Shown here piece after piece: positions 28,076 to 34,687 of a stretch of DNA of 64,000 nt (the first letter of the stretch is position 1; every line of letters begins with the position of its first letter). The DNA is taken from the NCBI GenBank assembly GCA_963792495.1, contig CAWBWB010000005.1:273747-337746 (forward strand). The letters run 5' to 3'. The position numbers and the translations under genes were made by a program. Source of the DNA: an uncultured Acidobacteriaceae bacterium. Lineage in GTDB: Bacteria > Acidobacteriota > Terriglobia > Terriglobales > Acidobacteriaceae. A model generated the notes under the pieces. The model ran no database searches. It worked only from the letters and a program-made list of their open reading frames with translations, and was not told the DNA's origin.

Positions 28076-28257
28076 GGATCAGCAGCTAAGGTCTTCGTTG
28101 ATGATCTCGGCGTGACGCATTTTGATTGGAAGTGCTGAAGCGACCGGCGTTGGCTCTCTTCTTTCGCGGAATCTTTAGCCGAAGCTGAGAGGCGTTCCAG
28201 ACAAAGCCGGAACGCCCCTCAAGCGCGCTGATATTTCCGCTTCAAGTTGACCGAAAC

Positions 28258-31200
28258 TTACTCCACCGAGAGCGGGACCTGGGCCGATGCCGTGACCGTT
28301 CCGCTGGTGGCGGTCACGGTAACGCTATAGTTTCCCGTAGTGGTGCCTGGATTGGTATGTGTGGTGCTGATGGTCGCCTTGCCGCACCCGGAGAGACAGC
28401 CTATGGCAACTATCCCCAGGACAATAAGAAATCCAATGCTCCGCCATCTCCTGCGCCGCGCGGCTCCGAAGAAAAGAAGCGCAGCGAGAGTTCCTTCACC
28501 TCCGCGCAGCCAGGCATTCGCTGCCCGAACCGCTGCGCTGCTGGCGGCTGTTGTGTTCACGGTGAGTACGGGCGTGGCCGGATTTCCGCTGGATACCTGC
28601 ACTTGTGCAGGATTCAGGCTGCAGGTCGGCGCGTCCGTGGCTGCTCCTGCGCCTTGATACGAGACGGAGCAGGTCAGGTTCGCGGTTCCCGAAAATCCGC
28701 CCACAGAGGTCACCTGAATGTTCGCGGTTGCGGAACCGCCGGGGGAGCTGATCATCATTCCCGTAGCGGGTGGCGTGACCGTGAGAGTTGCTCCCGTGCC
28801 GGTCAGCGCCACGGATTGCGGCGAGCTGGGGGCACTGTCGGTAATGGTGATGGTGCCGGTAAGGCTGCCTCCAGCCGTTGGCGCAAACGTTACAGAGATG
28901 GTGCAACTGGCGCCCGCTGCCACGCTGCTGCCGCAGGTGTTGGTTTCGGCAAAGTTTGTTGAGGCGGCAACAGAAGTCATCGAAAGCGCAGCCGTCCCCG
29001 AGTTGGTCAGCGTTACCGTCTGCGCGCCGCTCGTGGATCCCGTGTTCTGCGACGCGAAGGAGAGGCTGGCTGGAGAAACGGTGACAGCAGACACAACGAC
29101 GGTAACGGAGGCAGTTCCCGCTGCTGGTGCATAGGTACTGTCTCCGGAATACGAAACCGTGAGCGTGTCATTGCCCAGCGCGAGCGATCCGGCCGGGATG
29201 GTAATCGTGGCGCTGCCGCTGCTCAGAGTGGTAGCCACTGATGTGTAACTGCCGCTGGTGAGTGTCACCGTTCCTGTCGGCGTGGCATTTCCGCTTCCTC
29301 CGCTCACCGTGATTGCTACAGGCAGTGCCTGCGTGGTGGAGATGCTGGAAGATCCCGGCTTCACCGTGACGCTGGGCGTCAGGAAAGACAATAATGTCGC
29401 GGCAAGTGCTACGACATTCTGATTATTCGGCATCGCCAGGCTTTTCAGAGTCTTACTGGAGTCCAACGCAAAGGAATAACTGTAGAGGTAATAGATGCTG
29501 TCCACTCGGGGATATTCGTATGCGTTATCGATATAGGGCATCGCCACCGCTACCGATTCTCCGTCAGCGCACGGATAGGAAGGCGTGCAGCTATAGGTGC
29601 TCGACCAGTCATCAAAGGTTTGTGTGAATGTCTGCGTGGTGTTGTCTGCATAGGTCACAGTGATGGTTTGCGCCGGCTGCACTCCGTTCACGGCGGTTCC
29701 CAGTATTTGCAGAACCGGGGAACGAACGGCCGGCAAGGAAATCACATTCGAATTGATTCCGCTCACCGCATTGGCTTCATTGGGCTTTCCAAAATTGAAT
29801 TGAACACCCTTCACATTGATGCCCATTGGAGTCAGGCCCGGCGGGTTGAGCTGATTTGCGGAGTACACATCGGTGCTGCCATCCAGGCTGTTTGCATAAT
29901 TCAGCGTAGGCCAGCCGACGGAGTCATCGTAGAAGCTATACACGTTGAATGCGCTGGACAGATCGACGGCTGTGCCGGTGCCGCCTGTGAGCGGCGGGTT
30001 CACAATCACATTTACGGGAAAGGTCTGCGTGGTGACTCCGGAACCCGTTGCGGTCAGTGTCAAAGCAGCCGGCTGATTTGCGCCGGTAATTGCGGCAGTG
30101 CTGGAAGCAGTGAGTGTGAGCGTGTAGGTGTTGGGAGTTGAACCTGCGGCCACCTGGGCCGTGATTCCAGAAGGAAGATTCGATGCAGCAACGTCCACGG
30201 TGCCGGTAAATCCGTTGATGTCGGTAATCGTGATGGTGCCGCTGGCGCTGCTGCCCTGGTTCACTGCAATGGCGGCCGCCGGCATAATTCCCAGGCCAAA
30301 GCTGGGATTGGTTGTGCCGTAGGTGAGTGTGGTCGCCGTCGCTGTCGTTGTTACGTTGTAATCGCATTGGGGCTGCGTGCTTGAATCTGTATTGACCGCA
30401 TTTGCCCATGAAGGTGAGGAAACCTGATTCAGGTTGGAGTCATACAGCAGGGACGTAATCGTTAACGATCCGTCTGGCGGGTAATCGAGACACTGATTCA
30501 CGCTGTAGACTTCGAGCACGCCACCGAAGCCCCAGTTGAATGTCTGGCCCTCACTTGGCGATGCGCTTAGCTCGGTGCTCTGGTTGATGGTGGTGTCCTG
30601 GGTGATGACATTCCATGTAGCGCAGGAAACTGTGCCTGCTGCGCAGGTCATCACCGAGGTCCCCACAATGCTGTCACCGGGATTGATGGCGACCGGGGTG
30701 CTCTCGGCTGTGACACCCACCATGCAGCAGTTCCAGCTGGACATGGTCCATTGGTCGCCGTTGTATGACCCGATTACGGGTTGAAGGATGCTGGTTGCCT
30801 GGTCGCTATAGTCTTCAAACCCGGGAAAGAAATAGATTGTCTGGCCATCATGCGTGAGCGGCAACGGCGGCACCGTCCACGTGCTGACCTCTTTTCCATA
30901 CGCTGACGTGGGTGATGTAACGGTATTCGAGTCTTCGATCCAGGCATGGCCGATGGACGGCTGTTCTGCCGGTCCGTCTGTCTTATTTGTATTTCCTGTG
31001 CCGGAGATAAGCTTTCCAAGAGCATTGAAGCGAGGATAGCGGCAGGGGCTGATCTGAGTAGTGGAGCCATTTGCCTGATGGAGCACTCCCTTAGCATCCA
31101 AGGATTCACCCTTGCGGACCTGCAGCACGCACGATGGATGAAAGTAGCCAAACGGTGTGACGACATAATCCGCGGGAACGCCGGTTGGCCGATGCGGCCC

Positions 31201-31296
31201 GGCAGGCGGGAGCATGGAAGCTCTCTGTTGCGCCTTCAAGAAGGCACTACAAACTCCCAGCAAAAGTAGCAGCAGAAACAGCGCTCGCGATTTCAT
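28258..31296 (-). CDS. Large exported modular protein: G1/A4-peptidase-like domain, Ig-like repeats, glycosidase-associated beta-sandwich, Big_3/ASH domains, C-terminal TM hairpin with lipobox
   Basis: Signal peptide; VTPFGYFHPSCV, WTVPPLP, ILQPV; Thr/Ser-rich Ig repeats; tail LAALLFFGAARRRRWR-hydrophobic-LSGC. Confidence 0.8.
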   Translation of the reverse strand: MKSRALFLLLLLLGVCSAFLKAQQRASMLPPAGPHRPTGVPADYVVTPFGYFHPSCVLQVRKGESLDAKGVLHQANGSTTQISPCRYPRFNALGKLISGTGNTNKTDGPAEQPSIGHAWIEDSNTVTSPTSAYGKEVSTWTVPPLPLTHDGQTIYFFPGFEDYSDQATSILQPVIGSYNGDQWTMSSWNCCMVGVTAESTPVAINPGDSIVGTSVMTCAAGTVSCATWNVITQDTTINQSTELSASPSEGQTFNWGFGGVLEVYSVNQCLDYPPDGSLTITSLLYDSNLNQVSSPSWANAVNTDSSTQPQCDYNVTTTATATTLTYGTTNPSFGLGIMPAAAIAVNQGSSASGTITITDINGFTGTVDVAASNLPSGITAQVAAGSTPNTYTLTLTASSTAAITGANQPAALTLTATGSGVTTQTFPVNVIVNPPLTGGTGTAVDLSSAFNVYSFYDDSVGWPTLNYANSLDGSTDVYSANQLNPPGLTPMGINVKGVQFNFGKPNEANAVSGINSNVISLPAVRSPVLQILGTAVNGVQPAQTITVTYADNTTQTFTQTFDDWSSTYSCTPSYPCADGESVAVAMPYIDNAYEYPRVDSIYYLYSYSFALDSSKTLKSLAMPNNQNVVALAATLLSFLTPSVTVKPGSSSISTTQALPVAITVSGGSGNATPTGTVTLTSGSYTSVATTLSSGSATITIPAGSLALGNDTLTVSYSGDSTYAPAAGTASVTVVVSAVTVSPASLSFASQNTGSTSGAQTVTLTNSGTAALSMTSVAASTNFAETNTCGSSVAAGASCTISVTFAPTAGGSLTGTITITDSAPSSPQSVALTGTGATLTVTPPATGMMISSPGGSATANIQVTSVGGFSGTANLTCSVSYQGAGAATDAPTCSLNPAQVQVSSGNPATPVLTVNTTAASSAAVRAANAWLRGGEGTLAALLFFGAARRRRWRSIGFLIVLGIVAIGCLSGCGKATISTTHTNPGTTTGNYSVTVTATSGTVTASAQVPLSVE

Positions 31297-31582
31297 CGGT
31301 GGACCTTTCACGTGGGGATACGAACCTGATCGGAGAGGAAGAGATTCATGCCAAGGCTCAAATTCCGACGTCTTCAGGTTCCGGGGCCTTCAATAGATAT
31401 AGCGTAAAAAAAGAAAAAAGAGTGTCATGATCCGGAGTCAGGGCGTGGCGTCAGTTCCGTTTTGACAAAGGTATTTTCATCCTGACCGCTTCGTGCTGCA
31501 GATACGATCCCAACCCGAAACTCAAAAGGATTGACCTTATCTTTGTGCCAGGCGAAGGAAAGGAGATTCGGTGGTGAGCAGA

Positions 31583-34500
31583 TCAGAATTCCAGGCGTAG
31601 CGCGAACTGTATCTCGCGCGGTGTGCCCGATCCAACAGGCGTGACGGGCGATACGATGCTCGTGTTCACCGTATTGATAATGCTGCCAAAGCCTGTCGTA
31701 TTGGACGGATTAAAGACAGCCTGAGGCTGGCCCAGCTGCGGGTGATTCAGGATGTTGTAGAACTCCGAACGGAATTGCAGCCGCGCGCGCTCTGACAACG
31801 GAAACGTCTTGCCGGCGCCGAGATCCATTTGCCATGTGCCCGGTCCGGCAAGCAGGTTGCGCGGCGCGGTGCCGAATTCTCCAGCCGGAGCAGTAAACGC
31901 TGCTGGATTGATCCATTGGTTTACGTTCCTGCCTCCCGGCGGCGTTAGAGAAACACCCACAACCCGGTCAGGACGCTGCGTGCCGGCGTTGTTGCCATCC
32001 GGCGCGGTGTAGCTGCTGGGCAGAATCACATTGACCGGGAAGCCGGTGCGAGCCAGCGCCGTCGTAGTCAGCTCCCAGCCTCCGGCGATAGCATCCACAA
32101 ATCCGCCCTGGTTCAGCATCTGCTTGCCCCGGCCAAATGGCAGCTCATAGACGGCATTCGCATTGAATACATGGCGCGCATCCCAGTTGCCGCTGGCCCT
32201 GTCGCACGACGGGCAGGCCACATTCTGCGGCACCTGCGAGTCGCCGTCGCCGCTGCCGGCAGAGTCGTCATCGATTCCATGCGTATAGGCATAGTTGGCC
32301 GCCAGCAGAAGCCCGTTCGAGAACGGCCGCCGTAACGATGCAAGAAGTCCGTTGTAACTGCTGCTGAGCTTGGTGCCGCGCCAGGCAATCGCCGGTGCAA
32401 AGTCGGGATACGGAACCTTTCCGGTAAGCGGATCGATCATGTTCACCAGCGAAAGAGTCAGCAGATGCACGCCGCGGCTGCCTGCATAGGAGATGGTGCT
32501 CACCAGATTTGCCGGCAGAGTCTGCTGCACAGAGGCGCTCCACTGTTCCGTGTAGGTGTCTTTGCGGCGGCGGTCCTGCGCGGCTGGAGAAATGGTTCCA
32601 GGGCCGGTGTAGCAAGAGGAATCAATCGGATACGTGAGCGATGCACCGAGGCATTTTGTCAGCGAATAAGCGCCGACTTCATTGCTCTCCGGCAGGTTCT
32701 GGTCGTCCAGCTGTCCGTCTTCGTGATACATGCCGAAGCCGCCGCGCAGCACGGTGTGGCCGCTTCTGCCGGGGGACCAGGAAATCCCGGCGCGGGGATC
32801 AAAGTCGCCGAAATTCTGATACCCGAAACTTGCTCCCACGCCGCAGAAACCCTGCGGTCCGCAGGTGGCAAAGTCGAAGGGATTCGGCTTGCCGTTCACT
32901 TCGCTGAAAAGCTGGAGAAAGGTGTAGCGCGCACCAAGGTTCACTGTGAGGTTAGGCAGCCAGCGGAACTCGTCCTGGATGTAGCCAATATCCCACCATT
33001 TGCGCAATCCATTCATCGGCAAAGCATCGCTGAGGGAAGCTTTGCTGATCTTATTTGCTGCCAGATTCTCGACGGAAGAAAAGGTGATCTTTCCGCTGAT
33101 CGTTTTTCCCTGGTTCATTTGAATGCGGCGGAACTCGACGCCTGTCTTCACCGTATGCCGCCCATGAATCCACGTCAGGTTGTCGAGATAAGAAAACGCA
33201 TTGCCGGCGCCAATGCTGATGCGGTTGTAATTCTGCGTGCTGAGGCCCGTCACGGCAATCTGGTAAAGATTATCGGTCTGGCTGGAGTTGTAGCTGTTCG
33301 ACGTGGAGCGATTGAAACCGACTTCGGCCTCGTTCACCAGGTTTGCATTAAACACATGGAGCAGTTCGAGCGCTCCATTGATGGGATTCGATACCGACTG
33401 CTGCAGATCGGACGCAGTGACCGCAAACGGCTGCGTGTTGACTGACCTGTCGTAGTTGAATCGCATGAAGCCGGTTGTCCTGCTGGAAAAATGCTGGTCG
33501 ATGCGGATCATCGCCGAGCTTTCATTCACCACCTGCTCGCATGCGCAGACAAGCTGGTCAATGTTCGGGTCCTGGTCCACTCCGGGAATCAGAATGGTTC
33601 TCGGTCCGGCCACCGGATAAGCATTCATGATCGGATAAATCGGCGACGAACTGGGAACGGTAGCGCGATAGGCCGGAGTGGGCACGTAGCCAATGACCGG
33701 ATATCCCCAGTTTTGCCGGTACGCTTCAGAAGCAAGAAAGAAGAAGGTCTTGTCGCGCACTATGGGGCCGCCGAGCGATCCGCCGAATTGATTCAGACGA
33801 AGCGGCTGCTGAGCTTCTCCGCCAGAGGCCCAGGCGGGCTCAGTGGCGTCAAAGGCGTCGTTGCGCAAATACTCAAAAGCGCGTCCGTGAAAGCGGTTTG
33901 TGCCCGTGGAGGATGTGACGCTCAGCTGAGGCCCTGCAGTGCCTCCGGTCTCTGCGGGCGAGAGCAGAGAATCGACGCGAAACTCCTGAATCGCATCCAG
34001 CGGAATGGCAAGCCGCACATAGGCGCGCTGAGCCTGGTTCACAATGTTGGTGGCATCCACTCCGTCGTAAGTGAAGTTGTCGTCGTCAGTGCCGCGCCCC
34101 GCAAAGCGCACAGACCGCTGGTTGCTGCCGCCGATATCCACTACGCCGGGAACAAAGGCTGTGAGCGCGGCCCAGTTGCGGCCATTGAGCGGCAATTCAT
34201 CCGCCTGCTCTTTTTCCACCAGGCCGGTGATTGCGATGTTACTGCGATCCATGAGCGCGGAGCTGGCCGAAATCCTGACTGTCTCCTCGCCACCAGCAAC
34301 CTGCATGGCTGCATCCAGGGTGCGCGTCCTGCCGATCACCTGGTTCACGTTGGTGAACTTCAGAGTCTTGAAACCAGAATGGGTAATGGTGACGACATAC
34401 ATGCCCACCGGCAGCTCTGGAATGGCGTAGCTGCCACGCGAGTCCGAAATGGTTTCGCGCCGCAGACCGGTGGAATTTTGTTCCGCGATAATGTGCGCCT

Positions 34501-34687
34501 GCCCGAGCAGCGCGCCGGATGAGTCCGTGATAGTGCCGTTCAATCCGCTGCGGTCCACCTGCGCAAGAGCGCTGCCGGCAAAGAAGAGGACTGCGCAAAG
34601 TGCAATGGAAGCACGCAAGGCTGCACAAAAAGCACGAAGCGCATCAGGGCTTTCAGGGAACCGGAGATTTTTCTTTATCGTTTGCAT
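31583..34687 (-). CDS. TonB-dependent receptor (Oar-type, carboxypeptidase-regulatory-like N-domain)
   Basis: LPLNGRNW, DAIQEFRV, LNQFGGSLGGP, C-terminal PREIQFALRLEF. Confidence 0.93.
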   Translation of the reverse strand: MQTIKKNLRFPESPDALRAFCAALRASIALCAVLFFAGSALAQVDRSGLNGTITDSSGALLGQAHIIAEQNSTGLRRETISDSRGSYAIPELPVGMYVVTITHSGFKTLKFTNVNQVIGRTRTLDAAMQVAGGEETVRISASSALMDRSNIAITGLVEKEQADELPLNGRNWAALTAFVPGVVDIGGSNQRSVRFAGRGTDDDNFTYDGVDATNIVNQAQRAYVRLAIPLDAIQEFRVDSLLSPAETGGTAGPQLSVTSSTGTNRFHGRAFEYLRNDAFDATEPAWASGGEAQQPLRLNQFGGSLGGPIVRDKTFFFLASEAYRQNWGYPVIGYVPTPAYRATVPSSSPIYPIMNAYPVAGPRTILIPGVDQDPNIDQLVCACEQVVNESSAMIRIDQHFSSRTTGFMRFNYDRSVNTQPFAVTASDLQQSVSNPINGALELLHVFNANLVNEAEVGFNRSTSNSYNSSQTDNLYQIAVTGLSTQNYNRISIGAGNAFSYLDNLTWIHGRHTVKTGVEFRRIQMNQGKTISGKITFSSVENLAANKISKASLSDALPMNGLRKWWDIGYIQDEFRWLPNLTVNLGARYTFLQLFSEVNGKPNPFDFATCGPQGFCGVGASFGYQNFGDFDPRAGISWSPGRSGHTVLRGGFGMYHEDGQLDDQNLPESNEVGAYSLTKCLGASLTYPIDSSCYTGPGTISPAAQDRRRKDTYTEQWSASVQQTLPANLVSTISYAGSRGVHLLTLSLVNMIDPLTGKVPYPDFAPAIAWRGTKLSSSYNGLLASLRRPFSNGLLLAANYAYTHGIDDDSAGSGDGDSQVPQNVACPSCDRASGNWDARHVFNANAVYELPFGRGKQMLNQGGFVDAIAGGWELTTTALARTGFPVNVILPSSYTAPDGNNAGTQRPDRVVGVSLTPPGGRNVNQWINPAAFTAPAGEFGTAPRNLLAGPGTWQMDLGAGKTFPLSERARLQFRSEFYNILNHPQLGQPQAVFNPSNTTGFGSIINTVNTSIVSPVTPVGSGTPREIQFALRLEF

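Follow-up and report, generated by a model that had tools for sequence, protein, structure and literature searches.

A lipo-invert module with a split Ig-like domain and an internal lipoprotein-type signal at the C-terminus of a predicted exported protein of Acidobacteriaceae

P0001 is a protein of 1017 amino acids (aa) translated from a minus-strand open reading frame (ORF) at 28258-31311, stop codon included, in 64,000 nucleotides of contig CAWBWB010000005.1 (positions 273,747 to 337,746 of the forward strand; assembly GCA_963792495.1) from an uncultured Acidobacteriaceae bacterium. This whole stretch of DNA is the window, and coordinates refer to it unless a contig handle is given. P0001 is predicted to be a large exported protease-like protein of this acidobacterium. 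Its C-terminus carries a module in which an immunoglobulin (Ig)/fibronectin type III (Fn3)-like β-sandwich is split by a transmembrane (TM) hairpin that ends in an internal lipoprotein-type signal. The best overall explanation, given a probability of about 0.6, is a lipo-invert module in which the split Ig/Fn3 sandwich would be coupled to lipoprotein processing at an internal site. The module is not a new discovery, since the domain is catalogued and named by NCBI curators; the analysis here extends the unit to a split-domain anatomy of ~175-190 aa.

The C-terminal module of P0001 and its family

Residues 913-1016, the last 104 residues of P0001, match NF058595, the NCBIfam model 'invert_tail: lipo-invert putative C-terminal anchoring domain', with 59.9 bits against a curated cut-off of 37 and over profile positions 2-112 of 113. 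The last 175 aa of P0001 alone score 64.5 bits. The match lies at the extreme C-terminus of a protein with an N-terminal signal peptide (signal by inspection), and the tail has the layout of the family: a TM helix, a basic cluster, a second TM helix with a lipobox Cys and a short β tail. Judged by profile and layout, the P0001 tail is almost certainly a true member of the catalogued family, and the anchoring role of the module is putative. The same order of TM helix, basic cluster, lipoprotein-type signal, Cys and β tail is found in 24 paralogs that NF058595 detects in this genome. The model spans only the last ~113 positions, whereas the functional unit here is ~175-190 aa because the first five strands of the split Ig/Fn3-like domain belong to it. 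An earlier note, made from the sequence of the window, had put the anchoring system forward as a candidate undescribed one; this fails because NCBI already curates and names the module as NF058595. The C-terminal layout that it gave and its Cys codon at 28384-28386 agree to the base with the translation of 28258-31311. The elements of the module are as follows, with the basis of each assignment in parentheses (HMM, hidden Markov model; AF2, AlphaFold2; pLDDT, predicted local distance difference test).

28258..31311, minus strand: whole ORF, with signal peptide, peptidase-like passenger, Ig-like and β-sandwich spacers and split-Ig anchor (translation)
30001..30288, minus strand: intact internal Ig-like domain, residues 342-437, homologous to the split terminal domain (BLASTP, HMM)
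28552..28785, minus strand: N-terminal part (strands A-E) of the terminal split Ig/Fn3-like domain, LTVTPP...VLTVNT, residues 843-920 (AF2, N-part HMM)
28492..28551, minus strand: periplasmic linker TAASSAAVRAANAWLRGGEG, 20 residues, ending AWLRGGEG (family alignment)
28459..28491, minus strand: TM1, TLAALLFFGAA, residues 941-951, predicted stop-transfer helix, N-out/C-in (AF2 helix 102-113, tail statistics)
28441..28458, minus strand: cytoplasmic basic loop RRRRWR (translation, tail statistics)
28387..28440, minus strand: TM2, SIGFLIVLGIVAIGCLSG, residues 958-975, h-region of the internal lipoprotein signal, ending in the lipobox L-S-G (AF2, lipobox statistics)
28384..28386, minus strand: lipobox cysteine C976, codon TGC, predicted diacylglyceryl acceptor and LspA +1 residue (translation, alignments)
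28333..28383, minus strand: flexible tether GKATISTTHTNPGTTTG after the Cys, 17 residues, Gly/Ser-rich in most family members (alignment)
28261..28332, minus strand: tail NYSVTVTATSGTVTASAQVPLSVE, strands F and G of the split domain, ending at the stop codon (AF2 pLDDT 95-98, tandem-copy alignment)

A Trp and a Gly-Gly just ahead of TM1 recur in the linker across the family, the Gly-Gly often. The loop RRRRWR would have a double role: it would act as the positive-inside anchor and supply the internal lipoprotein signal with its n-region. C976 is followed by 41 residues.

The 4.8-Mb genome contains 27 matches to the NF058595 HMM, 18 of them above the cut-off, and 24 are full tails that end ORFs of 431-3459 aa. 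These 24 paralogous tails have 22-39% identity to the P0001 tail, and only two alignment columns are invariant, one of them the lipobox Cys. Statistics were compiled over 51 tails, the 24 from this genome plus 27 from other Terriglobia assemblies. The regular expression that picked the 27 external tails demanded a Cys, so the non-circular counts for the lipobox Cys are 24/24 paralog tails of this genome, 11/11 HMM matches from other genomes and 23/23 metagenome representatives, the latter counted when the profile match spanned positions ~5-177 and finished at the C-terminus. Over the 51 tails, the medians are 19 residues for TM1, +4 for the net charge of the loop and 43 residues for the tail. 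TM2 plus lipobox measures 16-21 residues with an uncharged h-region. The lipobox has L, M or A at -3, S, T or A at -2 and G, A or S at -1, and Gly occupies +2 in 75%. A PROSITE-like lipobox is fitted by 46 of the 51 tails. The internal lipoprotein-type signal that the earlier note had read in P0001 is thus a family feature, with a basic n-region, a 16-21-residue h-region and [LAM][STA][GAS]C around an invariant Cys.

Among 301 Acidobacteriota genomes, the family is above the cut-off in 28. All 23 sampled genomes of Acidobacteriaceae (class Terriglobia) carry it in many copies each, and the 28 also include two genomes that belong to two other families of the same class. The two genomes sampled from the sister family gave no match, and most of the phylum lacks the family in this set. 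The module is restricted to Acidobacteriaceae and close relatives. Orthologs of P0001 (~50% identity over the full length) keep both tail and Cys, and the layout also appears in other metagenome-assembled genomes (MAGs) of Terriglobia. Many homologs of the P0001 passenger domain are stand-alone proteins of ~350 aa without a tail, secreted forms of which occur in many Terriglobia MAGs, so the tail is modular. The recurrence of the layout is far above chance. The statement in the earlier note that similar tails occur on other acidobacterial proteins was correct, and the survey of phylum distribution and Cys invariance that it proposed returned an invariant Cys in a family of this distribution.

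A terminal Ig-like domain split by the hairpin

Two HMMs, one for the N-part (strands A-E) and one for the tail, were run on all ORFs of the genome and recovered 23 terminal domains with both parts. In these the tail starts 51-82 aa after the N-part and always lies 81-111 aa from the C-terminus. The same scan also found a few intact copies. In the paralog at C1:798084-802106, an intact copy and a split copy stand in tandem. Residues 3-84 of the intact copy align with 3-83 of the split copy at 60% identity (E 3e-24), and intact residues 88-102 align with split residues 154-168 at 80% identity. The two copies are collinear, and the hairpin plus lipobox is therefore an insertion of ~70 residues in one loop, the E-F loop of an Ig/Fn3-like β-sandwich.

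In a BLASTP comparison inside P0001, the match between the internal and the terminal domain covers the first part of the latter and stops at the junction (34% identity, E 1e-4). BLASTP of the P0001 tail alone against the P0001 internal domain gave no collinear placement because of low-complexity T/V repeats. The terminal domain with the insertion spliced out and the intact internal domain are both weak, collinear matches to Pfam DUF5980.

An AF2 model built from an alignment of 24 sequences has a mean pLDDT of 85, with the Ig strands above 93. The helices of the hairpin (102-113 and 117-136) are modeled at pLDDT 60-75 and the two tail strands (156-166 and 169-179) at 95-98. Foldseek matches of the anchor model are sandwiches of the Ig, Fn3, CARDB and MSP types, and the alignments cross the insertion. 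The tail consensus is C-G-G-[GS]n-G-T-P-A-G-T-Y-T-V-T-V-T-[AG]-T...T-L-T-V-[QN], and we take the family consensus GTPAGTYTVTVTAT...TLTVQ to resemble the tyrosine-corner F strand of Fn3 domains. This strand is a core element of the Fn3 fold, so an N-part deprived of the tail should not fold stably. It is highly probable that the tail completes the terminal Ig fold as strands F and G.

The position of the insertion is not fixed. In the metagenome representative P0010 (3334 aa) the TM hairpin and lipobox sit in the F-G loop, after ...TPAGTYQITVVFTE, and only one strand (G) follows the Cys. The conserved principle is that the final strand or strands are located after the Cys.

The earlier note had placed an intact Ig repeat at ~29990-30310 and had proposed that the tail supplies the last two strands missing from the terminal domain. 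The repeat was found at 30001-30288, and the strand assignment is upheld by the collinear tandem copies at 60-80% identity, by AF2 and by Foldseek. The AlphaFold model that it suggested as a check came out in its favor, with the tail strands at high pLDDT and Foldseek alignments across the insertion, from which the contacts are deduced.

Strands A-E of the anchor domain belong to a huge family of tandem Ig-like repeats, with 34,648 representative clusters at E <= 1e-3. Proteins of this family (P0003-P0152) have up to 67 repeats each, and Pfam touches the family weakly (DUF5980, E ~0.01).

Processing of the internal signal and competing explanations

The internal signal RRRRWR-SIGFLIVLGIVAIGCLSG-C fits a PS51257-type lipobox with a basic n-region and an uncharged h-region. 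Like canonical lipoproteins handled by Lgt, LspA and Lnt (PS51257), P0001 combines an n-region (RRRRWR), an uncharged h-region, L-S-G-C and a Gly/Ser tether; the genome also has a normal N-terminal lipoprotein with the sequence ...AVTGCGSGGSS, an anecdotal comparison. A set of 174 N-terminal lipoprotein ORFs of this genome picked by regular expression was too noisy for a clean comparison. The difference from canonical lipoproteins is location. Their Cys lies within about the first 40 residues, whereas the P0001 Cys is residue 976 of 1017, the signal starts at residue ~952 after a stop-transfer helix, and a mature 'lipoprotein' of only ~41 residues would result. The genome encodes LspA, Lnt and three Lgt-like genes (C14:1169412-1170104, C1:128905-129654 and C1:177062-177730).

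A pathway that uses this machinery would begin with the N-terminal signal taking the passenger through Sec. TM1 would then halt transfer and leave the Arg cluster in the cytoplasm, and TM2 would restart export as an ordinary lipoprotein signal, so that the sandwich is completed by the last two strands on their arrival in the periplasm. Lgt would put diacylglycerol on Cys976, LspA would cut ahead of it, and Lnt may attach a third acyl chain. The resulting lipopeptide of ~41 residues would be held non-covalently on the passenger as its core strands F and G. The outcome would be a lipid anchor at the C-terminal end, built by machinery that normally acts only at N-termini. From the form of the signal, Lgt/LspA processing of the Cys976 site is probable. 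Cleavage together with retention by strand complementation has about an even chance. More speculatively, some protease would remove the TM1-loop-TM2 remnant, and the complex with its lipid anchor would travel to the outer membrane or cell surface, a location that would suit passengers that are acid peptidases and β-propellers. The full version, in which a cut lipopeptide is bound by two-strand β-complementation, the hairpin is removed and acid peptidases and propellers are anchored on the outer membrane or surface, is tentative and would sooner be wrong than right.

The closest characterized analogue of the lipo-invert module is MYXO-CTERM of Myxococcus, the substrate of the myxosortase MrtX. 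In the published model its C-terminal Cys is lipidated, possibly by Lgt, the TM helix is cut off and the protein comes to be displayed at the surface by way of the type II secretion system (PMC11980579). The two modules resemble each other in that each ends dozens of exported proteins per genome and contains an invariant Cys, a TM helix and a cytoplasmic Arg cluster. In MYXO-CTERM the Cys precedes a single TM helix, the topology is inverted relative to lipoprotein signals and there is no lipobox (PMC11980579), whereas in the lipo-invert module a second helix turns the chain round and gives the normal topology of a lipoprotein signal with a canonical lipobox. The name 'invert' fits this logic, as the second helix would let the ordinary lipoprotein machinery act. 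The lipid of MYXO-CTERM is covalent on the passenger and a dedicated CPBP protease makes the cut. In the lipo-invert module, the LspA cut would part the lipid from the passenger, and the split domain would therefore be needed to hold both together.

The two unusual steps have parallels in working only, with no homology. In chaperone-usher pili an incomplete Ig-like fold is completed by a strand from another polypeptide (donor-strand complementation), and in viral polyproteins a stop-transfer helix followed by an internal signal peptide places a lumenal or periplasmic cleavage site beyond a TM hairpin. The proposed complementation differs from that of pili in that two strands (F and G) would be donated, initially from the same chain, by a donor that bears the lipid.

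Several points weigh against the processing pathway. To our knowledge, neither Lgt nor LspA has been shown to act on a lipoprotein signal as far along a chain as residue ~975, and a literature search found no paper that uses 'lipo-invert' or reports a comparable lipoprotein signal inside a protein or at its C-terminus. The contacts between tail and domain are inferred from pLDDT, the span of the Foldseek alignments and homology. An LspA cut would leave the passenger fastened to the inner membrane by the hairpin, and sorting to the outer membrane or surface therefore needs a second cleavage. Candidates for a dedicated enzyme were checked in turn. A dedicated Lgt paralog was rejected: Lgt is present in 1-5 copies per genome across the 301 Acidobacteriota, with multiple paralogs common, and its copy number does not covary with tails; several tail-rich genomes have one copy. 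The only rhomboid in this genome is generic and scores 51 bits against the rhombosortase cut-off of 84 (TIGR03902). One exosortase-like ORF scores 37.8 bits, and nothing links it to the tails. All-against-all BLAST of the ORFs found up to 7 kb from the 24 tail genes gave a single recurrent neighbor group. It consists of CadC-like regulators (Trans_reg_C plus TPR), often divergently transcribed, and one protein kinase whose C-terminal domain is the same as theirs, and there is no protease in it. No dedicated sorting enzyme for the tails was thus found among rhombosortases, exosortases, Lgt paralogs and neighbors, myxosortase not having been searched for. Two secretin-family genes are present in the genome, both under the GspD cut-off.

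The absence of a hairpin-removing enzyme from the Lgt, rhombosortase, exosortase and neighbor checks is in line with a permanent inner-membrane hairpin. TM1 and TM2 would then hold P0001 on the periplasmic face with the chain uncut, and Cys976 would be either unmodified or lipidated by Lgt without an LspA cut, as a third anchor point. The two helices are of adequate length around a positive-inside loop, and a hairpin carried on a loop lets the domain fold without any processing. Such a hairpin leaves unexplained why an invariant Cys persists in a well-formed lipobox with a Gly/Ser tether in paralogs down to 22% identity. We know of no case of Lgt-modified substrates escaping LspA, and the sedolisin and glutamic peptidase passengers are of types that are typically extracellular. 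These points make a permanent hairpin unlikely.

The Trp (often with Gly-Gly) ahead of TM1 and the RRRR after it recall the tripartite tags GlyGly-CTERM, PEP-CTERM and MYXO-CTERM. Read as such a tag, the W/GG motif, TM1 and the Arg cluster would direct a cut by a dedicated intramembrane protease as the main sorting step, with the lipobox secondary, and the genome does have a rhomboid and an exosortase-like gene. A motif-TM-basic cluster tag should end the protein, whereas ~65 conserved residues follow the basic cluster here. The PEP motif is absent, the rhomboid falls under the rhombosortase cut-off (51 versus 84 bits) and no sorting enzyme adjoins the tail genes. Alone, a sortase-type signal would also leave the invariant lipobox and the split domain unexplained, and it is less probable still than the permanent hairpin. 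Sortase-type cleavage may, however, complement internal lipoprotein processing by removing the hairpin.

An artefact, whether a frameshift, a fusion of genes for a secreted protein and a small lipoprotein, or a chance low-complexity match, has nothing beyond the unusual layout in its favor and is practically negligible, as the frame is continuous and stop-free in the 24 paralogs, in orthologs from independent assemblies and in the 23 metagenome representatives, and a curated HMM is matched above its cut-off. Separate translation of the tail as a small lipoprotein was also rejected, there being no in-frame start codon ahead of the Arg cluster in the P0001 gene.

Internal lipoprotein processing of the lipo-invert module remains the preferred explanation of the P0001 C-terminus. 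The proposed anchor mechanism is attractive and testable, and within it lipidation, cleavage and strand complementation are inferred from sequence. The overall interpretation of the earlier note holds for the lipoprotein-type signal, the split-Ig tail and the occurrence of similar tails elsewhere, and does not hold for a system without prior description.

Passengers, genomic context and significance

P0001 is ordered as a Sec-type signal, a passenger of ~300 aa, an Ig-like domain, an unassigned β-rich region, a Big_3_5 domain, a choice-of-anchor D/ASH domain and the split-Ig anchor. Its N-terminal signal is not a lipobox because position -1 is Val. The features outside the C-terminal module, with the nearest upstream gene, are the following.

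31225..31296, minus strand: N-terminal Sec-type signal peptide MKSRALFLLLLLLGVCSAFLKAQQ, residues 6-29 (by inspection)
30304..31227, minus strand: passenger domain, residues 29-336, with a predicted glutamic-peptidase (eqolisin/neprosin)-like fold (AF2 model and Foldseek, homolog alignment)
29098..29352, minus strand: Big_3_5 Ig-like domain, residues 654-738 (domain search)
28825..29109, minus strand: choice-of-anchor D/ASH-type Ig-like domain, residues 735-829 (domain search)
31583..34687, minus strand: CarboxypepD_reg plus OMP_b-brl_4 outer-membrane β-barrel (TonB-dependent-receptor-like) gene (domain search)

The passenger domain (residues 29-336) has no sequence match in Pfam, NCBIfam or the PDB. 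Its AF2 model (pLDDT 78) matches scytalidoglutamic peptidase 2ifw (E 1.8e-8, TMt 0.69) and neprosin. Q177 (ILQPV) and E267 (GGVLE) are invariant among 15 passenger homologs, which also have eight conserved Cys, and we take these two residues to be a candidate Gln/Glu catalytic dyad of glutamic peptidases. The model suggests that the passenger is possibly an uncatalogued bacterial branch of the glutamic peptidases. The paralogs carry other passengers: FG-GAP propellers, sedolisin-type peptidases, BNR/sortilin, Kelch and SBBP propellers. In most of them a Big_3_5 domain directly precedes the anchor. Direct observation covers the module with its split anatomy, its conservation with the invariant lipobox cysteine, its modular use on diverse exported passengers and its restricted distribution.

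The CarboxypepD_reg/β-barrel gene lies directly upstream of the P0001 gene on the same strand with a gap of 271 nt, and the two may form a pair in which a surface peptidase feeds an importer. Such pairing is no general rule: a neighbor of the TonB-dependent-receptor type occurs at only 2 of the 24 tail genes. An imperfect GC-rich inverted repeat (GAGGGGCGTTCC...GGAACGCCTC) without a T run is located at ~28189-28220 of the window (minus strand), ~40 nt past the stop codon, and may be a transcription terminator or an RNA-stability hairpin.

Elsewhere in the genome, tail genes occur in tandem arrays of 2-3 (C14:392937-412426, C14:507129-514469 and C1:798084-805656; loci L097-L101, L107 and L109), with FG-GAP propellers and sedolisin-type (Pro-kuma_activ plus S8/S53) peptidases as passengers. 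Three CadC/ToxR-like winged-helix (Trans_reg_C) plus TPR regulators, L115, L116 and L118 (C1:795695-797782, C14:390762-392903 and C14:875147-877234), are divergent from tail genes at distances of 34-302 nt and are likely dedicated transcriptional regulators of the adjoining tail loci.

Acidobacteriaceae are abundant soil bacteria, and the build of their cell-surface proteins is essentially unstudied. About 24 large exported proteins of this genome share one C-terminal module, among them sedolisin and glutamic-type acid peptidases and FG-GAP, Kelch and BNR propellers, so understanding the module would locate a large share of the extracellular enzymes of the organism. If the proposed pathway is true, it would place an N-terminal-type lipid anchor on the C-terminal end of large exported proteins, and the universal lipoprotein pathway would be acting on an internal signal, a use without precedent. 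The product, a lipid anchor held non-covalently by a naturally split domain, would be of interest to research on protein sorting and to the engineering of surface display.

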